The translations under genes and the position numbers were made by a program. A DNA stretch of 64,000 nt from a virus (lineage: Duplodnaviria; Caudoviricetes): IMG/VR virus record IMGVR_UViG_3300033493_000001, positions 1,756-65,755 of that record. One strand, written 5' to 3'. The notes under the pieces are model-generated. The model ran no database searches, had not been told where the DNA came from, and was given only the letters and a program-made list of their open reading frames with translations. The first letter of the stretch is position 1. Every line of letters begins with the position of its first letter. Positions 1,351 to 58,950 of this stretch are shown here, one piece after another.

Positions 1351-2268
1351 TTAGCCGGCGCCCATAGACCCGTAGCACGAGCGCGGATCCGTCCAACCTT
1401 CGCTGTACCGCTGCCGCGCGCGATAGATGATGTTGCCGGTAGACGGATCGACGGTCGCTTTCGGCACCACCATCTTCGTGCGATTGATCACCTTCAGACC
1501 ATCCTTGATGTCGGTCTTGATGAACCACGCATCCGGATCGGTGAGGTTGGTCATGACAACGGGGTCGTTGCCAAACACGCCCTTGCGCACGATGGCGTTG
1601 ATGTCGCGCTCTGCGGTGCCGGGCCGATCCTTGTTGCCCAGGATGCGGATGGCGTTGTATTCGCCCTGCGGCGCCACGATGAGGCGAACCGGCTTCATCA
1701 TCACGGGGAGACCGCGATCATCCTTGGCGGTACGGATCTGGATGAGGAGCTGCTCAATTGCCGATTCCGACAGGTCGGCGGCAGTCGAAAGCATATTGCT
1801 CATGGTGCCGCCACCCATCAGCGGATGGTCCGTCGCCAAAAGCGGTTTGCCGTCGCCGCCGAGATAGCCGGTATCCACCGCGTTGTTCAGCACGTTCGCC
1901 GAATACACTTCTTGCGACTGACGCATGGAGCGAGCCATTGCGCGCGTGTATTTGGGGCCGAGCTGAATGTAGCGGTTGTCCTCGATTGCCTCTTCGGTGA
2001 GGCGGAACGAGAGGCCAACGATGCGATGGGTATACCGCTTGGTCCACCCTTCCATGCCCTCGTCCTGAGCGTACTCGCCGCCCTCGGACTTCTCCGGAGC
2101 GTAGCCGAGGCCGGTGACCAACAGGTCTTCCTCGAACGCCTTTTCTGACGTGCTTACATCGAATACCTGATCGTACTCGGTCGGGTAATCGTCGTATTCC
2201 AAGCCAAAGATGGTATTGAGACCATCCTGCTGCATTTTCGCGAAACTCGCGCGTGTCATTACTGCCAT
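1351..2268 (-). CDS. Major capsid protein (HK97 fold, Mu gpT-like family)
   Basis: 305 aa with GLNTIFGLEY..SEKAFEE..G...K.EG..RYTH..GL.F.LTEEAIEDN motifs typical of this capsid family; terminator-like hairpin at about 1303-1325. Confidence 0.9.
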   Translation of the reverse strand: MAVMTRASFAKMQQDGLNTIFGLEYDDYPTEYDQVFDVSTSEKAFEEDLLVTGLGYAPEKSEGGEYAQDEGMEGWTKRYTHRIVGLSFRLTEEAIEDNRYIQLGPKYTRAMARSMRQSQEVYSANVLNNAVDTGYLGGDGKPLLATDHPLMGGGTMSNMLSTAADLSESAIEQLLIQIRTAKDDRGLPVMMKPVRLIVAPQGEYNAIRILGNKDRPGTAERDINAIVRKGVFGNDPVVMTNLTDPDAWFIKTDIKDGLKVINRTKMVVPKATVDPSTGNIIYRARQRYSEGWTDPRSCYGSMGAG

Positions 2269-3377: not shown

Positions 3378-4328
3378 TTAGGCCCTCTTCCTCTTTAAAT
3401 ATGCTTCCCGCACCTTCGGGTCTTTGTGATCTAGACCGTACTGTTTCATGGTGCGAATGTCGTAATCCGTCAGCTCGCCGGCTTTCTTGCGCGGTGGAGC
3501 TTCACCGCCGCGCGATGGCGGCGCAATGTGGTTGCGAGGCGCCGGCGTTTTCTCCGGAACCTCAGTCACTTCTTGCTCTTCGATTTCCTCGACGCCAAGC
3601 ACAGAATCGAACTCCGGCAACTCTCGGATCCGTCGGTCAATCTCGGCATATAGCTTTTTTGCCTGCTCAGGATTTTTCAGGCTGTAGCCGCGGAGAATAA
3701 GGCTCAGCTCTATTCGCTGAACTTCGGCGGATAGATGGCTGTTTCCTGGATCCGTGTACCATTGATTCGACTCAAGCCATGCCGCCGCTTCCGGAATCAT
3801 CCCTTCCGGCTCGCCTTGAACTCTCTGCTCTGTAACGCGCTCCGGTTCCGTGGTCTTCGGTCGCATCCTGTCGCGAACGGCGAACAGCTCGTCCGTCGCC
3901 CTGTTCGACTCGGCGAGATTCCCCTCTTCCTCTGCCTGGCGGCGCCTCTCGATCAACTCCTGTTCGCGCTGTTTGAGAATGGCGGCGGTTGATTCGCTCG
4001 CCCCCTTCTCTGCATCTATGCGACGTTGTTCGAGAAGCTCTGCTTTGGCTTCGGCTGCCGCGGCGCGCTCTTCTGCTTCATGCTTCTGCCGTACCAACTC
4101 ATTGAGGCGCTTCTGGTAATCATTGCGCTTTCGCTGTTGGCGCTGTTCCTTTGTGTCCGGTTGCTGCTCCAGCTGCTCGGGCTTCTGCGTTTCCTGTTGT
4201 TCGTCCTTGCTGTCATCGTGCGCAGCGTCTTGGTCGGACAGGACGGTCTTCGTGTCCTCCGGCACGTCGATGGTGTCGAACTCTGCGCCGGAATACTGTT
4301 CGTCTTGAATTTTTTCTTTCTCTGCCAT
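3378..4328 (-). CDS. Capsid scaffolding protein
   Basis: Acidic, coiled-coil rich; position between portal and capsid. Confidence 0.7.
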   Translation of the reverse strand: MAEKEKIQDEQYSGAEFDTIDVPEDTKTVLSDQDAAHDDSKDEQQETQKPEQLEQQPDTKEQRQQRKRNDYQKRLNELVRQKHEAEERAAAAEAKAELLEQRRIDAEKGASESTAAILKQREQELIERRRQAEEEGNLAESNRATDELFAVRDRMRPKTTEPERVTEQRVQGEPEGMIPEAAAWLESNQWYTDPGNSHLSAEVQRIELSLILRGYSLKNPEQAKKLYAEIDRRIRELPEFDSVLGVEEIEEQEVTEVPEKTPAPRNHIAPPSRGGEAPPRKKAGELTDYDIRTMKQYGLDHKDPKVREAYLKRKRA

Positions 4329-9522: not shown

Positions 9523-10989
9523 TCACCCATACGCCGCCCTCTTCTTAGGTGGCGCGTCTTCGATCTCTTCTTCGGTCTGGTCGCGGTCTGGCTCGTCATT
9601 CCGCGGAACATCCTCAGGAGTTAGCCACATGCGGCGCTTAACGTACATCACCGCTTGGCTAACGGTATCGGTATAGTCCGCAGCCGGCGCTTCTCCGACA
9701 GGAAACGAGGCGACATAATTTATCACCTTGCGCGCCCACTCTCGATCCTCCGGGTAATAGACCAACCCGGAAGAAAAGTATGGCGTCGCCAAGTGCGCTC
9801 GTTGCTCCTTGTCGCCGTACCGCGCCGGATCAAATCCTCGGGCAGGAAGGCGAAGCTTTTTCATGTCCTGAATGAGCGAGATACCGGACGCCTTTCGCTC
9901 AATCAGCGCAACGTCTACGCCAAATCCCTTGTGATGTTTCTTGGCGTTCTCCCGAAGCTCCGGATACCCGACCCGACCATTCCACCCATCGAGTAGAATC
10001 ATGGCTGGCTGACTGCTCACGGGGTCGTCGAATACGCCCCACGTAGTTCTCGCGGAGTGCGCCGATTTCTCGTTGTCTTTTTTGTTGCGGTCGTGCTCAG
10101 TGAATGCCGTATCCCAACTGTCGAATATGTGATAGCACTCAGGGAGCGGCTGTTTTTTCGGCCACATCTGCCACCACTTGGCCTTGATGATGCTGGCCGA
10201 TTCGTCGCGGATCCGCCAGTTTCCACGAAGAAGGCGCTCTCTGTCCACCGTGGCTAGCGCATGCAGGTTTGCTGCGTACCCCGGATCCGCATCCATCAGA
10301 ATCCTGTTGTCCTCAATGGACGCCGCCACAAACGTAAAGCTTTTCGGTTCTCCCACCGTCGGATACTTACGTCTCAGCTCGTCAGGGTTATCTGCCCAGT
10401 AAAGAGCGTCATTCACTCGGACGAAATAACGAATCACCCCGGACCGCTTTTGTATCGGATAACCCGTCTCTTGATCTATCCACCATGCGATCAGCTCAGC
10501 GACAAACGAGTCCGGGTCCGGGTTACATGTGCCCCTGATGTATGGCCGCACGCCGCATGTTGAGCGATTACGACTCAGCATGTACCAAAACTGTTTTGCG
10601 CTGAAATGGGTCAGCTCATCGAACCCGATCAGCGGTATCTGCGCGCCCTGCCACGAAAGAACGTCGCTGTCGTACTCCAGATGGGAGAACGACACTGACG
10701 CGCCTGACCCAAATCGCCATTCGAGCGTTTGCTGTTTTGGCGTCGCCCCGAGTGCGCCGTAAATCTTTGTACTCTCGTCCCAGAGTCCGCCCTCATTCCG
10801 TATCTGAGGAGTGGTTCGCCGAAATATCACGGCTCCGAAATCTGCGTTCCCGGTATGCCTCAGCGCCTCCAGCAGCAGGGCAAACGACTTACCGCCGCCA
10901 GCCGCGCCGCCATAAATAGCGATGTCGGCCGGAGAACTGAGCCATGCCTCTTGTGGCCCTGGCTGCGGGCGGAGATCTCTATCTGCCAT
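9523..10989 (-). CDS. terL: Terminase large subunit
   Basis: Walker A GGAAGGGKS, Walker B IGFDELTHF, C-terminal nuclease with DSWDTA and DTVSQA. Confidence 0.95.
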   Translation of the reverse strand: MADRDLRPQPGPQEAWLSSPADIAIYGGAAGGGKSFALLLEALRHTGNADFGAVIFRRTTPQIRNEGGLWDESTKIYGALGATPKQQTLEWRFGSGASVSFSHLEYDSDVLSWQGAQIPLIGFDELTHFSAKQFWYMLSRNRSTCGVRPYIRGTCNPDPDSFVAELIAWWIDQETGYPIQKRSGVIRYFVRVNDALYWADNPDELRRKYPTVGEPKSFTFVAASIEDNRILMDADPGYAANLHALATVDRERLLRGNWRIRDESASIIKAKWWQMWPKKQPLPECYHIFDSWDTAFTEHDRNKKDNEKSAHSARTTWGVFDDPVSSQPAMILLDGWNGRVGYPELRENAKKHHKGFGVDVALIERKASGISLIQDMKKLRLPARGFDPARYGDKEQRAHLATPYFSSGLVYYPEDREWARKVINYVASFPVGEAPAADYTDTVSQAVMYVKRRMWLTPEDVPRNDEPDRDQTEEEIEDAPPKKRAAYG

Positions 10990-18968: not shown

Positions 18969-18998
18969 GCGCTCACTGTCTCATGTAGGGGATGTGGG

Positions 18999-19034
18999 GT
19001 TAGGTGGTAGTAGTGCGTCTATCGCCTGTTCGGC
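18999..19034 (+). other. attI-like site (upstream GTTAG site plus simple site)
   Basis: GTTAGGT..GCGTCTAT-CGCCT-GTTCGGC; the two GTT are 29 bp apart. Confidence 0.6.
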
Positions 19035-19299
19035 GGCACAGGTTCATGCCTTTGGCGGCATTGATTCCGCGCTCCTGATTCTGCTTGCTCATCGTTTCGA
19101 GCAGAAGGCGACGGGCCTCATGCACTCGCTGGTCGGCTGTCTCCTCCATCCACAGCAACCCGTAAGCCACTTCAACCCGGCTCGGCTTTTCGCATGGAAT
19201 CGGCTGTTTCGGGCACGGCCCGCTGTACCCGTGGAACTTGAACATTTCCTCGCCAGCCGGCATCGGCTCACCGCAAATGGTGCATTTCGCTTCAGTCAT
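19000..19299 (-). CDS. Cassette-borne hypothetical protein (CxxC N-terminus)
   Basis: 99 aa, GGAG RBS, between an attI-like site and an attC-like site. Confidence 0.7.
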   Translation of the reverse strand: MTEAKCTICGEPMPAGEEMFKFHGYSGPCPKQPIPCEKPSRVEVAYGLLWMEETADQRVHEARRLLLETMSKQNQERGINAAKGMNLCRRTGDRRTTTT

Positions 19300-19319: not shown

Positions 19320-19401
19320 GCCCAACAATTTATTTCAGGCCGACGCCCGAAAGCGCCGCTGTTTCGTCATGCGCCATCAGCGGCGCGATTCGTTGTTGGC
19401 C
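19320..19401 (+). other. Decayed attC-like site
   Basis: GCCCAAC-AATTTAT-TT[C]AGGCCG[A]CGCC left arm; right arm GGCGCG..ATTCGTT-GTTGGCC lacks most of L'. Confidence 0.6.
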
Positions 19402-26916: not shown

Positions 26917-27425
26917 TTTTATCTACCCTCTATTTGCACAACAAAAGCACTTTGTTAGGTGTCGGTTTTTGCGGTTGAGCCTGGTTCGTTGCATAGCCCG
27001 TTAGGCCGTCTAGGGAGGATTGTTCCATCATTTTGCGAAGTTCGTACGAGGCCTGCCGTTGAATTTCATGCGGCTTCCTTTCTTGACCACGAGCGCCTCC
27101 CAACCCATAACAAGGAGGACCGGACGATCCTGGTAATGCCATGTCACTACGCTCCCGCCCGCCGCCGCGCCGAAATCAGCTCATCGAGCATGCCCGCGTG
27201 GATCCTTGCGTACTGCACCAGGATTGCGTCGCTCGCGTGCTCAAGCGTTTTGCGGGTGATACGGCGGATGTTGCGGGGATGGATGTGCGGCACACCGAAT
27301 GCGCTCATCTGCGCCTCGATTTTTTCCATGGTGTCGCGATGGTCGCAGGTGATACTGCCCGTCGGGAGAGCGATGATGAAGCCGTCGGTTTTGGGGCTAT
27401 TGGTGTTCATTGATGGTCTCCTGAG

Positions 27426-27692
27426 TTAGGTCTTGCGCAACGCAGAAACGCGCGGCCAATAGAGCATGGGGATGTTCCCCTTTGCGGGAGGAACAAGAAC
27501 GACGAAACTTTCGTGTGCGCGCCTATTGCCGCCACCGTAAGCGGAACGGAACTTATGCGTTTTTGCCAGTTCCTTTTCCACAAGACGAAAGTTTTTTCCT
27601 GGGGGAACAATGGCAACAATTTCGCCATTCTTCGTTGTGCGTCCGCCGCCGGCCGCGCTCCACCAGTGCACTCGATCGCCAATTTTGAACAT
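27426..27692 (-). CDS. Hypothetical protein
   Basis: MFKIGDRVHW; stop lies in ACCTAAC. Confidence 0.7.
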   Translation of the reverse strand: MFKIGDRVHWWSAAGGGRTTKNGEIVAIVPPGKNFRLVEKELAKTHKFRSAYGGGNRRAHESFVVLVPPAKGNIPMLYWPRVSALRKT

Positions 27693-27704
27693 GATCCATC
27701 CTCG

Positions 27705-27932
27705 TTAGGCCGTGGGCGCCGTTGATTCCGTTGCCTCGCGCAACTTACTGCGCAGCTCATTCATTTCCGCGTTCATGCGCTGTGCCGTGTTGTAGAGATA
27801 CGGGAATGCATCAAACATCGCCCTCGCAAAATCGATCCATTGTCTGCTGCCGAATCCGTGCACCTGGGCGCGCTCTCGCATGCGCAACAAGTCATCAAGG
27901 TTCGTTACCGTCATTGTCACTCTTGTTGTCAT
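27705..27932 (-). CDS. Hypothetical protein
   Basis: 75 aa; stop lies in GCCTAAC. Confidence 0.7.
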   Translation of the reverse strand: MTTRVTMTVTNLDDLLRMRERAQVHGFGSRQWIDFARAMFDAFPYLYNTAQRMNAEMNELRSKLREATESTAPTA

Positions 27933-27944
27933 GGCGCTTCTCCA

Positions 27945-27979
27945 GTTAGGCCGCGGGAGCCGTTGATGTGGTGTTAGGT
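27945..27979 (+). other. attI-like site
   Basis: GTTAGGC..CCGTTGAT-GTGGT-GTTAGGT; the two GTT are 28 bp apart. Confidence 0.6.
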
Positions 27980-28276
27980 TGCTTTCCTCTCGTAATTTCG
28001 CCCAGCATCAAAAGCCTGCTGAACAATGGATTCGAGCAGCTCGTTGAACATCGAATCGGCTAATGGGTTGTACGTTTCGGAATGGCTTTTTGATGCCAGT
28101 TCGCACGCAAGCGTTCGAATTTGCATAACCTGATTTCCTTCCGGTACGCACTTCACTTTTACTTCTACTCGCATCACCGCCTCCGTTTAACTCGCAACCT
28201 AACAACTACTTGAGCCCGACGCCTCAGACTTCACCGCTTCTTTCCCGCAGCATCTTGGCGCGGGCTAAGAGAGCCG
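27974..28276 (+). mobile_element. Putative integron-type gene cassette (303 bp) carrying antisense ORF 27974-28177
   Basis: Starts at G/TTAGGT; its attC R'' ACCTAAC is the exact complement. Confidence 0.7.
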
Positions 28277-28282
28277 TTAGGC
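28197..28282 (+). other. attC site (86 bp)
   Basis: ACCTAAC-AACTAC-TT[G]AGCCCG[A]CGCC...GGCG-CGGGCT-AA-GAGAGCC-GTTAGGC; canonical spacings and two extrahelical bases. Confidence 0.8.
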
Positions 28283-28283
28283 A

Positions 28284-28532
28284 CTACGGTTCGCACGCAA
28301 TGCAGCGCACGCCTTTAACCTCTTCGTCCGGGTCGAGCCTGTGCTCCAAGCAAAGGTTTCTTGCCACCGTGCTTCCGGTGCCGAATGTGTCCATTACAGC
28401 CACCCATCGCGGGGAGTTTCCGTAGCGTCTCGGCCGCGCGTTCCGCATGGCTCGGCACACCAGTTCTTCCGCAGAATAGGTGGGCGCACTGGCGTTCTTG
28501 ATTTGCGGGTCGGTTGCGGTTTTCGTGCTCAT
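28284..28532 (-). CDS. Hypothetical protein
   Basis: MSTKTATDPQ..; stop abuts the attC R' box. Confidence 0.6.
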   Translation of the reverse strand: MSTKTATDPQIKNASAPTYSAEELVCRAMRNARPRRYGNSPRWVAVMDTFGTGSTVARNLCLEHRLDPDEEVKGVRCIACEP

Positions 28533-28545
28533 GGCGCTTTGCTCG

Positions 28546-28743
28546 CTAATTCTTGAGGTTCCTAGAGAACCTCTGCCGGTCAAAAAAAAGGGAGTCGGCA
28601 CTACTCGCTATCCCATTCAGGTGCGATATGACGATCTCCTCAATAAGGGCCTCGGGCGTTATGCCGCGGGCCCTTGCCTTCGCTACTAGGACTGCTTCTG
28701 TGAACTCATCCAGCGGCGGAATAACGTGTTCTTTTCCATCCAC
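28546..28743 (-). CDS. Small ribbon-helix-helix-like protein
   Basis: LVAKARARGITPEALIEEIV. Confidence 0.5.
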   Translation of the reverse strand: MDGKEHVIPPLDEFTEAVLVAKARARGITPEALIEEIVISHLNGIASSADSLFFDRQRFSRNLKN

Positions 28744-29891: not shown

Positions 29892-29958
29892 ATGTTTAAC
29901 ACGCTGAACATTGACGGTCAAGCCCATGCAACATCAAAATGTTTAGAGTTATAGACAT
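29892..29958. promoter_or_regulatory. OR operators and PR promoter
   Basis: 20-bp imperfect palindromes ATGTTTA-N6-TGAACAT (29892-29911) and ATGTTTA-N6-TAGACAT (29939-29958); TTGACC-17-TAAACA on - strand. Confidence 0.8.
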
Positions 29959-30613
29959 GAGCACATTAGCCGAGCGCGTGGCCGAGGCATTGGCGGACGC
30001 GGGAATCAAGCCGATTGAACTAGCAAGGATGGCCGGGGTCGGCCGGGCCACCGTTTCCCTATGGATGAGTGGACATACCAAAAAATTAGAGGGGCCCAAC
30101 CTGACCAAGGCATCTAGGGCTCTCGGTGTCGATCCTCACTGGCTCGCAACAGGGGAAGGACGAAAAAGACCGCTGTCTGGGGGCAATGTTGAGCCAGGCC
30201 CGGACATTCGCGGCCAGGTCCCACTTATCTCATGGGTACAAGCGGGGAAGTGGTGCGGTATTGTGGATACGTTCCACCCTTGTGACGGGGAGAAAATGAT
30301 TTTCTCAACAAAAAAAGTCGGTCCGCATGCATTCGCTCTACGGGTCAAGGGGGATTCGATGGAAAGCCCGGCAGGACGGCCGACCTATCCAGAAGGATCG
30401 ATTATCATCGTAGATCCAGGCGTTGATGCGGTTCATGGGAGCCGCGTGATCGTCCGCCTGGATAGATCAGACGAAGCCACGTTCAAGCAACTTGTTGTCG
30501 ATGGTGGAAAGCGTTATTTGAAGCCACTGAATCCGCGCTATCCCATCCTCGAAATGACAGATGACGCGGTGGTCTGCGGTGTTGTCGTTCAAACAATCAT
30601 TGACGAGGACTAG
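29957..30613 (+). CDS. cI: CI repressor (HTH plus S24 autoprotease)
   Basis: HTH then VPLISWVQAG, FALRVKGDSM, ATFKQL. Confidence 0.95.
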   Translation: MSTLAERVAEALADAGIKPIELARMAGVGRATVSLWMSGHTKKLEGPNLTKASRALGVDPHWLATGEGRKRPLSGGNVEPGPDIRGQVPLISWVQAGKWCGIVDTFHPCDGEKMIFSTKKVGPHAFALRVKGDSMESPAGRPTYPEGSIIIVDPGVDAVHGSRVIVRLDRSDEATFKQLVVDGGKRYLKPLNPRYPILEMTDDAVVCGVVVQTIIDED

Positions 30614-37869: not shown

Positions 37870-37995
37870 GTATAACGCTACGCTTGAGGCGCACGCCGAG
37901 AACGAAACCGCTGAAAGGGATGAAGATGAGCGGAACCAATGAACGTGAAGAAACCACAGCGGTAGGCGTGTCGCCACTCCAAGCGGTTGTTAGCG
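37870..37995 (-). other. attC site (126 bp), top strand on -
   Basis: On +: GTATAAC-GCTACGC-TTGAGGCGCACGCC...GGCGTG[T]CGCCACTC[C]AA-GCGGTT-GTTAGCG; canonical 7/6 spacings. Confidence 0.7.
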
Positions 37996-38132
37996 CAGTG
38001 CAATGCGATAGATGCGGATCGACTATTAGTTTGTTGATCTGCACCTTGTCTGATCGCGGCGACATCCTGTGCCTGGACTGCGCGGACCCGGTTGGTAGGC
38101 GCGCTCCGTTGTTTTCGCGCGCTAATAGGTGA
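37920..38132 (+). CDS. Cassette-borne small protein with two CxxC motifs
   Basis: Starts inside the attC loop; CDRC..CLDC; stop lies in the attI-like site. Confidence 0.6.
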   Translation: MKMSGTNEREETTAVGVSPLQAVVSAVQCDRCGSTISLLICTLSDRGDILCLDCADPVGRRAPLFSRANR

Positions 38133-38167
38133 TAGACGGACGAGTTCCGACTAACTCCACATTACGG
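38120..38167 (-). other. attI-like site
   Basis: - strand CCGTAAT-GTGGA-GTTAGTC..CCGTCTAT-CACCT-ATTAGCG; closely matches 18990-19034. Confidence 0.6.
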
Positions 38168-40866: not shown

Positions 40867-41166
40867 GTGAGCAAATTAATAACCGTCCGGCAGGCGGCCG
40901 ACTCGCTTTCTATCTCTCCGAAGCAGTTGCGACGCCTCATAGACGATGGTCAGATCCCCGTGATCCCTTGCGGCCGAGGGGCGAAAGGGGATCGGATTGA
41001 TCCCGAAGATGTCGAAGTCTACAAGCGCCGCGTAAAGAGGCTAAAGAGCGTCCCATGTCTATCTTCAAACGTGGTGAGATTTGGTGGGTTGAAGTTAAAG
41101 TCGGTGGAATCAGAATTAGAGAATCTGCTGGCCCCCAAGCGACGCAAAAAGACGCGCGCGAACTAG
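40867..41166 (+). CDS. xis: Excisionase (MerR-like HTH)
   Basis: LITVRQAADSLSISPKQLRRLI..G.IP..RIDPEDV; overlaps int. Confidence 0.8.
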   Translation: MSKLITVRQAADSLSISPKQLRRLIDDGQIPVIPCGRGAKGDRIDPEDVEVYKRRVKRLKSVPCLSSNVVRFGGLKLKSVESELENLLAPKRRKKTRAN

Positions 41167-42032
41167 AGGCGCGCATTCGCGCCAGGGCGCTTGATGACCG
41201 CCTGCAGGCCAAGATGGGGAAGACGCCGTGCAGGACATTCGACGAGGCGCTGCTTCGCTGGCTGAAGGACGAAGGCTCTACGCTCAAAGACCCCGGCCTA
41301 CGGGCGCGCGCAAGGCTGGTGCTGCCGCACATCAAAGGCGTATGGCTTGAGCAAGTCCCCGACGCCTCCGCCAACATGCGGCAGAAGTTCATCGCGCAAG
41401 GACTGAAGCCGGCCACGATCAATCGCCGCCTAGCCATTATCAGGCGCGTCCTGAACTGCGCCTATGACTGGGGATGGGTTACAGAGAAGGTCGGGCGGCG
41501 CATCAAATTGCTCGCCGAGCACAATGAGCGGTACGTGTATCTAACGCGCGACGAAGTGATGTCCCTTGCCGCCGCGGCCGGCGACGCTGGGCCTATGATC
41601 TGGCAGTTGGCCTACACGGGGCTCCGGTTATCCGAACTGTTCCGCCTGACCGCTGATAACGTGGTCGGCGATGTAATCGCGCTTAGCTCTAACACAAAGA
41701 GCGGAAAGCCGCGCATTGTCCCCATACACTCTGAGATTGCGCATTACCCCATTCCGGTGACGATTACGCGGAACCAATTCCGGCGACGGTTCGAAGAGGC
41801 CCGGGTCAAGATCGGAAAGCCCGGCCTGCACGCTCACGACCTGCGCCACACGTTCGCTTCATGGCTGGTGCAATCGGGCGCCAGCATGACGGCCGTGCGC
41901 GACCTGATGGGGCATGCCCACCTTGGGGTGACGAGTCGATATGCTCACCTGCATGACGATCACCTGCGCGCGGCACTGAAGAAAGTGGGACACAAAAAGG
42001 CCCACACCAAGAAAAGCCGCAATGCCGAGTGA
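41055..42032 (+). CDS. int: Tyrosine integrase
   Basis: TGLRLSEL, K(SGKPR), HDLRHTFASW, GH..VTSRYAH; N-terminal arm-binding-like domain. Confidence 0.95.
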   Translation: MSIFKRGEIWWVEVKVGGIRIRESAGPQATQKDARELEARIRARALDDRLQAKMGKTPCRTFDEALLRWLKDEGSTLKDPGLRARARLVLPHIKGVWLEQVPDASANMRQKFIAQGLKPATINRRLAIIRRVLNCAYDWGWVTEKVGRRIKLLAEHNERYVYLTRDEVMSLAAAAGDAGPMIWQLAYTGLRLSELFRLTADNVVGDVIALSSNTKSGKPRIVPIHSEIAHYPIPVTITRNQFRRRFEEARVKIGKPGLHAHDLRHTFASWLVQSGASMTAVRDLMGHAHLGVTSRYAHLHDDHLRAALKKVGHKKAHTKKSRNAE

Positions 42033-57158: not shown

Positions 57159-57643
57159 TGAGGAATCACTCCTCTCAAATTCGCAATGGCCAGCGCCTTT
57201 TCCGTATCCACTCCGGCAGCATCAATGGCAACCTCTATCGCCTTCTTCCCGATTAGACGATGTCCGCGGATGATGTCCATAATTCCATACCAGACGGCCG
57301 CGGTAGCGATGATGTCATCTGCCGCCTGTTGAGCCGTCCATCCGTTCACCGTCGCCCAATCCTGCACGCATACGGGAACGGTCCCCGTATATCCGGCAGC
57401 AACGTATGAACTTGCTCCGCTCTCGGCGTGTTTATACTCCTGCTCGACTAGGAATCCCGGCGACGGGAACCTTGACCGTGCGATGCCGGCCTCTATGTCT
57501 ACCTCCTTCCTTGCGGTCGCCTTGTATTCGGCCAGAGTTGGCAGCAAATCCGCATGGCCATCCGGCAAATACTCCTGCCCGGCGTATTGCTGCGTTGCCC
57601 ATATGCCGGTGACTACGAGACCTGTTCGTTCGACGTACGGCAT
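57155..57643 (-). CDS. Tail fibre assembly/chaperone-like protein
   Basis: Follows a fibre gene; ATVNGWTAQQAADDII. Confidence 0.6.
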   Translation of the reverse strand: MPYVERTGLVVTGIWATQQYAGQEYLPDGHADLLPTLAEYKATARKEVDIEAGIARSRFPSPGFLVEQEYKHAESGASSYVAAGYTGTVPVCVQDWATVNGWTAQQAADDIIATAAVWYGIMDIIRGHRLIGKKAIEVAIDAAGVDTEKALAIANLRGVIPQ

Positions 57644-58950
57644 TAGCGGCGACTCCATTCGAACCCGAAGGTGGTTACGATGTATTCATCCACGGTCGCC
57701 AGCGTGCTTCGCGTACGGATTTGGCGCGACGTATTCGTTAGAATGCGGATATTGCAGAGCGAGTAGGAGCCGGGAGTTACGCTGCTGATCGTGAATGGTC
57801 CGCTCGCCCCCGGCGCCGTGTCGGTTGTATCCGGATCGCTGATCAGCTCGGTGTGCGCATCGGTAGCGTCATACGTTCTTGCTACGGATATCGGCCGGAC
57901 TTTTATTCCAGTAGGAACGGAAAGAGCATCGGTTCTTGCGGCGGTAGTAAGCGTGTTCGCCAAACTCACGTCTACAACCGGCACTTTCCATTGGTAATTA
58001 AGGCCGCCTCCGGGCAATTCCGTCGCGACGAATCCTAGGATATTGCTGCCTCCGTCCGTCTTCACCCATCCAATATGCCGGAACTTCGTGTACCCGGCGG
58101 GCATCGTTGGAGCGGTTCGGCTCAGCGAAAACAGGTAATCGACTGAGTTGTCGGAATCCTTCAGGATGGCGTGAATGTAGTATTCCGTCGAACTCGCCTT
58201 TGCTCCGGTGTCTAGCCCGCCCTGATTCGTCCCAGCCGCCCACGCCGCATCAAGCCGCTTCGTCAACGCCGAGCCGACGAGAATGGATGCGTTCGTCGAG
58301 TCGATGCACTCGCCCGCGGCGATGTCGATATCGTTGTTCGCATCCCCGGCATTGTTGGACGCAATAAGGCCGCTGATGTAGGCGTGCCCGGAAGCTACAA
58401 TCAGAATCCTCTGAGCGGCCGCGGTGGCCGCCGCCAGGAATGATCTGCCGACCGACGTTATCGCCCCTTCTGCCCACGTATCGGCGGCCGTGGTGTATGC
58501 GTATTTGTCGGCCGCGGTTCCAAGAAGCGCGATGCTCGTCAGCGTGGCATCGAGAGGCTGCGAATTGGCCGATATGCCCTTCGTGTTGCCGCTCGAATCC
58601 AGCGTTGCCCATCCATTGCCGTGCGTGTAGATGAGCTGATCGCCAACGGCAAGCGTTGCTGTGATGATGACATAGAGCGTCGTGTTGTCGTTGTAGCGAA
58701 TCGTTACCGTGGCCGCTGCGGTATCGCTGTTTCTGACTGATACGTAATCGACATCGCGAACCGTGCTTGCGGCCGGAGCTGTTGCAATTGTTACGGCCGT
58801 CGCGCTGTTGGTGTTCGTAAGCTTAGAGGCGCCAGTGTAGGCGGATGATGTCTTGTCCGAATAGCTAACCGTGACCGGGAGCTGATTCGTAGAGACAGCA
58901 CCACCTAGAATCGCCTCCAAAGAGCGAGTTGTTGTGTCTAACCGGATCAT
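57643..58950 (-). CDS. Tail fibre protein
   Basis: SQPLDATLTSIA..TAADK.AYTT..TSVGRSFLAA; variable C-terminal domain. Confidence 0.8.
   Translation of the reverse strand: MIRLDTTTRSLEAILGGAVSTNQLPVTVSYSDKTSSAYTGASKLTNTNSATAVTIATAPAASTVRDVDYVSVRNSDTAAATVTIRYNDNTTLYVIITATLAVGDQLIYTHGNGWATLDSSGNTKGISANSQPLDATLTSIALLGTAADKYAYTTAADTWAEGAITSVGRSFLAAATAAAQRILIVASGHAYISGLIASNNAGDANNDIDIAAGECIDSTNASILVGSALTKRLDAAWAAGTNQGGLDTGAKASSTEYYIHAILKDSDNSVDYLFSLSRTAPTMPAGYTKFRHIGWVKTDGGSNILGFVATELPGGGLNYQWKVPVVDVSLANTLTTAARTDALSVPTGIKVRPISVARTYDATDAHTELISDPDTTDTAPGASGPFTISSVTPGSYSLCNIRILTNTSRQIRTRSTLATVDEYIVTTFGFEWSRR

Follow-up and report, generated by a model that had tools for sequence, protein, structure and literature searches.

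A temperate phage without an integron integrase carries a probable integron attC site and gene cassette in its leftward early operon

The DNA analyzed here, referred to as the window, is a 64-kb stretch of a 65,755-bp IMG/VR virus record with a CheckV completeness of 84%. The window encodes a capsid protein (positions 1351 to 2268, minus strand), a large terminase (9523 to 10989, minus strand), a CI-like HTH-S24 repressor (29939 to 30613, plus strand), and a tyrosine integrase (41055 to 42032, plus strand), as well as an N6/N4 methylase and an antirepressor, and the carrier phage is temperate. A further protein, encoded at 57643 to 58950 (minus strand), matched the second domain of the major tropism determinant (Mtd) of Bordetella phage, which hints at a diversity-generating retroelement target. 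To the left of the S24 repressor, a run of small minus-strand genes forms the leftward early operon, and it is in this run that the attC site and cassette described below are located, among gene A (28284 to 28532), gene B (27974 to 28174), gene C (27705 to 27932), and gene D (27426 to 27692), all on the minus strand. No integron integrase (IntI) was found in the phage record, where the best score was 30.9 bits against a cutoff of 265. A blastn search with 27400 to 28700 against 50,697 phage records gave no match, a search for related loci with genes C and D returned nothing, and the relatives of the terminase and of gene A gave no host. Neither a close relative of the phage nor an empty cassette site was found in the searches made, and since no close relative with an empty site was found, no presence/absence polymorphism was seen at the cassette junctions.

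Between genes A and B, positions 28197 to 28282 (plus strand) form an imperfect hairpin of 86 nt in which the geometry of an integron attC site is complete. As read from the sequence, it consists of R'' (ACCTAAC, 28197 to 28203), a 5-nt 5' spacer (UCS; AACTA, 28204 to 28208), L'' (28209 to 28223, with CTT at 28209 to 28211, AGCCCG at 28213 to 28218, and CGCC at 28220 to 28223), a 33-nt variable loop (28224 to 28256), L' (28257 to 28269, with GGCG at 28257 to 28260, CGGGCT at 28261 to 28266, and AAG at 28267 to 28269), a 6-nt 3' spacer (UCS; AGAGCC, 28270 to 28275), and R' (GTTAGGC, 28276 to 28282), all on the plus strand. Two extrahelical bases within L'', G28212 and A28219, correspond to C and T on the bottom strand, and the arrangement as a whole is 7-5-3-1-6-1-stem/loop/stem-6-3-6-7. 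An initial annotation, made from the sequence alone, had given the letters of this site exactly but had assigned it spacers of 6 and 7 nt; because the C:G pair adjoining each spacer also pairs, the spacers are in fact the canonical 5 and 6 nt. The published rules for attC sites place an EHB at position 16 and a conserved T at position 23/24 and call for a 6-bp stem, UCSs of 5 to 6 nt, and a length of 57 to 141 nt (Nivina 2016, PMC5027507), and each of these features was present in 28197 to 28282.

Judged by its sequence, the top strand of the site is the plus strand of the window and the putative recombinogenic bottom strand is the minus strand, with the crossover predicted to fall between G28276 and T28277. 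Folding of the bottom strand as single-stranded DNA, which had been put forward earlier as a check, agreed with the strand assignment; the minus strand folded with -21 kcal/mol (z = -2.9) and with T and C bulged on the 3' arm, compared to -15.7 kcal/mol (z = -1.35) for the plus strand. The initial annotation had pointed out that the first bottom-strand bulge is C instead of the usual G. This was correct, and the variant proved to be common, as it occurred in 29 of 94 natural array attCs (31%); the second bulge was invariant among the same 94 sites. In a strict structural scan of the 64 kb on both strands (RYYYAAC...GTTRRRY with paired cores), 28197 to 28282 was the sole match, and a scan of viral contigs for the exact stem pattern gave four matches, all of them by chance within coding DNA. 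An intrinsic terminator was considered separately and rejected, since no run of T follows the hairpin on either strand and the terminator scan was silent there.

A scan of the hairpin against Rfam gave nothing above noise, and Rfam holds no attC model; therefore, we built our own covariance models, trained only on attCs from bacterial chromosomal arrays. Arrays were retrieved by scanning 185,579 species genomes with a pattern (AACAAYT, gap, SCCGACGCC, gap, GGCGCGG) that returned about 80 chance matches in coding DNA and a set of real cassette arrays from Thermomonas, Luteimonas, Azoarcus, and MAGs of Gammaproteobacteria and Acidobacteriota; IntI scored above the TIGR02249 cutoff in four of the five genomes with training arrays. 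The models were made from short sites first and then by model-guided alignment, and the window was absent from both training sets. Model R1 (24 short array sites, structure 7-5-3-1-6-1-6) matched 28197 to 28282 (plus strand) over the full model with 37.2 bits (E = 1.3e-7), compared to 12.3 bits on the opposite strand and 13.9 bits for the best unrelated match, and model R2 (94 attCs from 28 loci) gave 50.9 bits (E = 1.2e-12), compared to 16.7 bits on the opposite strand; the E values are rough because the calibration was short. When the whole virus record was scanned, this attC was again the match. Judged by the two E values, the hairpin is far from anything expected by chance. As the retrieval pattern was partly taken from 28197 to 28282 itself, the score is partly circular; however, the approximately 80 chance matches that carried only the pattern scored below 18 bits, compared to 20 to 55 bits for divergent array members, so that the circular part of the score is bounded at less than 18 bits.

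The site was identical to natural array attCs at 41 of 53 arm positions, and this, together with the covariance models and the geometry, upheld its earlier assignment to the aadA/aadB type; the difference between the two strands in both models likewise agreed with the earlier choice of the plus strand as the top strand. In common with the attCs of the aadB/aadA type and of Xanthomonadales-type arrays, it has R''/R' cores of the form RCCTAAC/GTTAGGY and an AAYTN spacer, and it has their stem (3 bp, bulge, 6 bp, bulged A, and CGCC), their 6-nt 3' spacer, and their geometry as a whole. It differs from these sites in its 33-nt loop, in the top-strand G bulge (found in 31% of natural sites), in having no integrase or attI nearby, and in having its gene on the bottom strand.

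IntI crosses over between the G and the TT of the core; the TTRRRY of each R' is therefore part of the next cassette and pairs with the R'' of that cassette. This signature was evident in the bacterial arrays, in which 43 of 66 R'' boxes were perfectly complementary to the core before them, compared to only 8 of 66 that perfectly complemented their own R'. The R'' of the window site, ACCTAAC, showed no mismatch to the GTTAGGT at 27973 to 27979 (plus strand), of which it is the exact reverse complement, and one mismatch to its own R' (GTTAGGC). Since R'' complements this left core, G|TTAGGT, rather than its own R', the cassette is 27974 to 28276 (plus strand), a unit of 303 bp that runs from TTAGGT to the G of R'. 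The boundaries first proposed for the cassette, including the placement of the TAA stop of gene B (27974 to 27976, minus strand) inside the left core, thus stood up in full. The GC content of the cassette was 50.5%, among the lowest 3% of 303-nt windows, and a scan for promoters and terminators found neither within it. Its only real open reading frame (ORF) is on the bottom strand of the attC, in contrast to the usual cassette layout with the ORF on the top strand. The locus is neither a complete integron nor a CALIN; because there is no IntI and 9 kb separates the site from the next attC-like site in each direction, it was classified as a SALIN.

Just outside the left cassette boundary, a stretch at 27945 to 27972 had been thought to resemble attI. 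The analysis gave no support for this, since 27945 to 27979 has two GTTAGG boxes in direct orientation, spaced 28 nt apart, but lacks an inverted L box, and the stretch duplicates the 3' end of gene C. The copied sequence is a 23-nt direct repeat, GTTAGGCCGYGGGMGCCGTTGAT, that brackets gene C (plus strand), with one copy at 27704 to 27726, where it forms the last codons of the gene, and the other at 27945 to 27967 between genes.

Gene B, which has a GGAGG ribosome-binding site (RBS), encodes 66 amino acids from an ATG at 28174 or 67 from a GTG at 28177, is oriented with the bottom strand of the attC, and runs in the same direction as the leftward early operon. An exhaustive HMMER search of 1.8 billion representatives detected 32 distant homologues at an E value of 1e-3 or below, among which R20, C24, P37, N44, and F55 were invariant, and AlphaFold2 gave a pLDDT of 95. 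Gene B is therefore a real gene, and its product is modeled as a small helical protein. No match in Pfam or PHROG and no functional match by Foldseek against PDB and BFVD or in the ESM Atlas was obtained; a word-index protein search returned only gene B itself, and a cluster look-up returned only metagenomic singletons. At 46.3%, the GC content of gene B is within the lowest 0.9% of windows in this phage of 57.6% GC, which would fit a foreign origin. The low GC content, the intact site, and the perfect core match also lend some support to the word "recent," which the initial annotation had applied to the cassette.

The next module begins with TTAGGC and continues with gene A (28277 to 28532, minus strand). 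Gene A encodes 82 amino acids (phrog_15161), and its stop codon is TAG, outside the TAAC box; the stop, one base, and then GCCTAAC follow in order, an arrangement also seen in a related phage locus, L007. Just past the start of gene A, the sequence at 28541 to 28575 (plus strand), GCTAATTCTTGAGGTTC...GAACCTC, bears a loose resemblance to the left arm of an attC after deletion and has a 7-bp hairpin; it was not detected by the model.

Two other attC-like sites were present in the window. The second (37870 to 37995, with the minus strand as its top strand) scored 27.8 bits with R2 (E = 1e-5) and lies, mirror oriented, in the rightward early operon; a plus-strand gene (37920 to 38132) starts inside its loop, and a candidate left core, ATTAGCG (38126 to 38120), fits its R'' (CGCTAAC) in the six bases derived from the cassette. 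The third (19320 to 19401, plus strand) is decayed (R2, 16.6 bits; E = 0.024); its left arm (GCCCAAC AATTTA TTTCAGGCCGACGCC) is nearly canonical, its right arm is truncated and missing most of L', and the gene at 19055 to 19299 (minus strand) is antisense to it. An exact 12-mer, ATGTGGNGTTAG, was found in three copies, compared to 0.01 expected (18992 to 19003 and 27966 to 27977 on the plus strand and 38151 to 38162 on the minus strand), and each of the three attC units has one copy at the end that is distal to its gene. About 39 nt are common to the copies at 18992 and 38162 (…GTTAG, 12 nt, CGTCTATCRCCTRTT); a scan of the viral collection for this longer motif gave one unrelated chance match (L144). 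A landing site and a regulator site are both conceivable roles for the 12-mer. Moreover, GTTAGGY occurred 19 times in the window (6.3 expected), 8 of them within the 1.3 kb from 26954 to 28282, where they are mostly on the plus strand and several supply the TAA stops of the minus-strand genes B, C, and D; this cluster may represent scars of cassette boundaries whose attCs have been lost.

To place the locus in context, related phages were considered by way of gene A, which was the sole gene common to otherwise unrelated loci (L007 to L016, around positions 4000 to 4200). In five of these phages (L011 and L013 to L016), gene A is an ordinary gene with overlapping stop and start codons. In L007, the gene A homologue lies in an inverted cassette that is complete, bounded by G|TTAGGC and, at the other end, by the R'' GCCTAAC, which match perfectly, and in L008, with canonical gene orientation, the homologue is followed by a sense-oriented attC-like site of 18.1 bits. 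Viral contigs that had only gene A in common with the window (47 to 64% identity) contained many attC-like sites. At E values of 0.01 or below, there were 11 attC sites in the whole record of a complete 52.7-kb genome with terminal repeats, 5 in a 98%-complete 50.7-kb genome, and 2 in a complete 45-kb genome. Unfiltered searches revealed arrays of about seven sites spaced 200 to 600 nt apart; the dense arrays were L150, L153, and L156 in the 52.7-kb phage and L145 and L149 in the 50.7-kb phage, with two clusters per genome, and the two clusters of the 52.7-kb phage were oppositely oriented. The sites of these arrays are independent of the retrieval pattern, since they are AT rich and do not contain it. 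Their R'' boxes complemented the core before them perfectly in 13 of 23 cases (with no more than one mismatch in 19 of 23) and their own R' perfectly in 1 of 23. In 21 of 23 phage intervals, the longest ORF was on the bottom strand of the attC, compared to 20 of 61 bacterial intervals by the same crude measure. A scan of viral and metagenome collections with alignment A7 found one contig in both. The only gene B homologue with genomic context, in L142, ends with its stop codon in GTCTAAC and has a similar GTTATGGCCGCG... box downstream and, just upstream, an inverted attC-like hairpin that is weak (13.4 bits; E = 0.27).

Several points weigh against reading the locus as an attC with its cassette, namely, the lack of IntI in the phage record, the failure to find a close relative with an empty site, the ORF antisense to the usual orientation, the C as the first bottom-strand extrahelical base, the partial circularity of the score, and the weakness of the hairpin near the L142 homologue. 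Nevertheless, it is probable that 28197 to 28282 is a genuine attC and 27974 to 28276 is its cassette, the two together making up a SALIN in a temperate phage without IntI, and the findings suggest that phages of this group trade small accessory genes by means of a bacterial integron integrase. The explanation that survives best beside this one, although we regard it as unlikely, is that the attC is a fossil, now inert and kept only as a spacer separating two genes, whose block entered when the phage recombined, homologously or illegitimately, with a host integron or with a different phage, rather than through insertion by IntI at this position. The lack of IntI in the phage is compatible with such an origin, as is the visible decay of another site of the same phage (19320 to 19401, 16.6 bits); moreover, the nearby direct repeats and the recurrent GTTAGGY cores could serve ordinary recombination, and off-target recombination at GTTRRRY motifs has been raised for phages before (Qi 2023, PMC9892861). 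However, every structural feature of 28197 to 28282 is intact, the left core is still a perfect complement of R'', a match that is quick to decay without selection or recent recombination, and the arrays of the related phages keep the crossover signature over many cassettes.

Much less probable still, the hairpin would only resemble an attC and would be some other phage element at the RNA or DNA level (for example, an attenuator, a site of processing, or a hairpin bound by protein), with stop codons accounting for its TAAC/GTTA ends. The hairpin does lie between two cotranscribed genes, the strand that folds best is the transcribed strand, and stop codons are in or adjoin the TAAC boxes; yet it matches a model of bacterial attCs with an E value of 1e-12 and with the right bulge positions and spacer asymmetry, it has no U tract, no terminator call, and no Rfam family, and the complementarity to the flanking core has no rationale at the RNA level. 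Finally, we give hardly any credence to a reading in gene sense (GCCTAAC ... GTTAGGT), by which the hairpin would be a standard 3' attC belonging to gene A upstream and gene B would be the next cassette, with its attC truncated, for although the order gene, RYYYAAC, hairpin, GTTRRRY, gene looks canonical and the gene A homologue of L008 is followed by a sense-oriented site (18.1 bits), the minus strand scored 12.3 and 16.7 bits against 37.2 and 50.9 bits for the plus strand, the bulges would be on the wrong arm, the 5/6 spacer asymmetry would be reversed, and the TAG stop of gene A is outside the box.

A SALIN is a single attC lacking an integron integrase, thought to result from insertion by IntI at a genomic attG (Loot et al., bioRxiv 10.1101/2022.09.11.507474). 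The phage locus resembles the SALINs described in that study in having one coding sequence and one attC far from an integrase, at a GTT and with a neighboring promoter, and it differs from them in that the carrier is a phage genome rather than a bacterial chromosome and in that the target was already core-like (GTTAGGC). Reports of integron recombination sites in phages are recent and few. A survey of isolate phage genomes that demanded at least two attCs within 3 kb reported integrons, CALINs, and attCs in 21 of 10,705 (0.2%), and five of six phage attCs tested there were recombined by IntI1 (Qi 2023, Front Microbiol, PMC9892861). Those phage CALINs are similar to the present case in that attC sites and cassettes occur in temperate and virulent phages without IntI; here, in contrast, the attCs are single and dispersed in both early operons, and relatives carry arrays of seven or more cassettes with antisense genes. 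Genes antisense to attCs and a mirror arrangement in early operons are not mentioned in that survey, and none were found in a limited literature search. SALINs, attG insertion, and phage attCs are thus already described (Loot et al.; Qi 2023); what is new is the second significant attC (37870 to 37995) in mirror orientation and the dense phage arrays with bottom-strand genes (21 of 23).

Inverted cassettes, with the ORF on the bottom strand of the attC as here, also occur in chromosomal integrons. In sedentary chromosomal integrons, they are mostly toxin-antitoxin (TA) modules with their own promoters; in contrast, the phage cassette has neither a promoter nor a TA pair, and its gene is aligned with the phage operon. 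Moreover, inversion is the rule in the related phage arrays (21 of 23).

As to mechanism, an IntI encoded by a host would have inserted a circular cassette into a GTT site of the phage, and the empty site before insertion would have read ...GATGTGGTG|TTAGGCACT.... The bottom strand, in this case the minus strand that has the sense of the gene, would have been used for insertion in its folded form. Because gene B has its own RBS but no promoter, it would be expressed by read-through from the phage early promoter. The cassette may be excisable or exchangeable in a host that expresses IntI. The SOS response induces both IntI and the cleavage of CI-like S24 repressors such as the one at 29939 to 30613, and phage replication is a source of single strands; since IntI expression and S24 cleavage are both SOS responsive, prophage induction, phage replication, and IntI would coincide.

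As arrays of the same build occur in related phages, the cassettes look like a pool common to phages rather than a one-off capture. A broader proposal, which we put forward tentatively and hold to be rather less than an even chance, is a lineage-spanning pool of "phage-sense" cassettes, with early genes on the bottom strand, shuffled between coresident phages by SOS-induced IntI. Such cassettes would have their ORFs transcribed when situated in the early operons of a phage, with the two divergent operons carrying them in mirror orientation, but capture by a bacterial integron would place the ORFs antisense to Pc and leave them silent. Shuffling might take place at phage-borne landing sites such as ATGTGGNGTTAG...R|TT, and gene A, which occurs in cassette form as well as in the form of an ordinary overlapping phage gene, would exemplify how cassettes arise from phage genes. 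The findings suggest that phages are perhaps not accidental carriers only and may keep a cassette repertoire suited to phage transcription. The arrays of the relatives, with up to 11 sites, bear the footprint of IntI crossovers, which has a bearing on the origin of integron cassettes and on the movement of phage accessory genes (moron or antidefense) between unrelated genomes.

A separate observation concerns the training arrays. One training site, at positions 880 to 939 of locus L102, an environmental chromosomal array in the species-genome collection, matched the attC that adjoins aadB in clinical plasmids with 100% identity, and 2,563 plasmids carried sites with at least 90% identity to this training site. 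By sequence identity, this would fit a Xanthomonadales-type origin of the attC of the aadB cassette.
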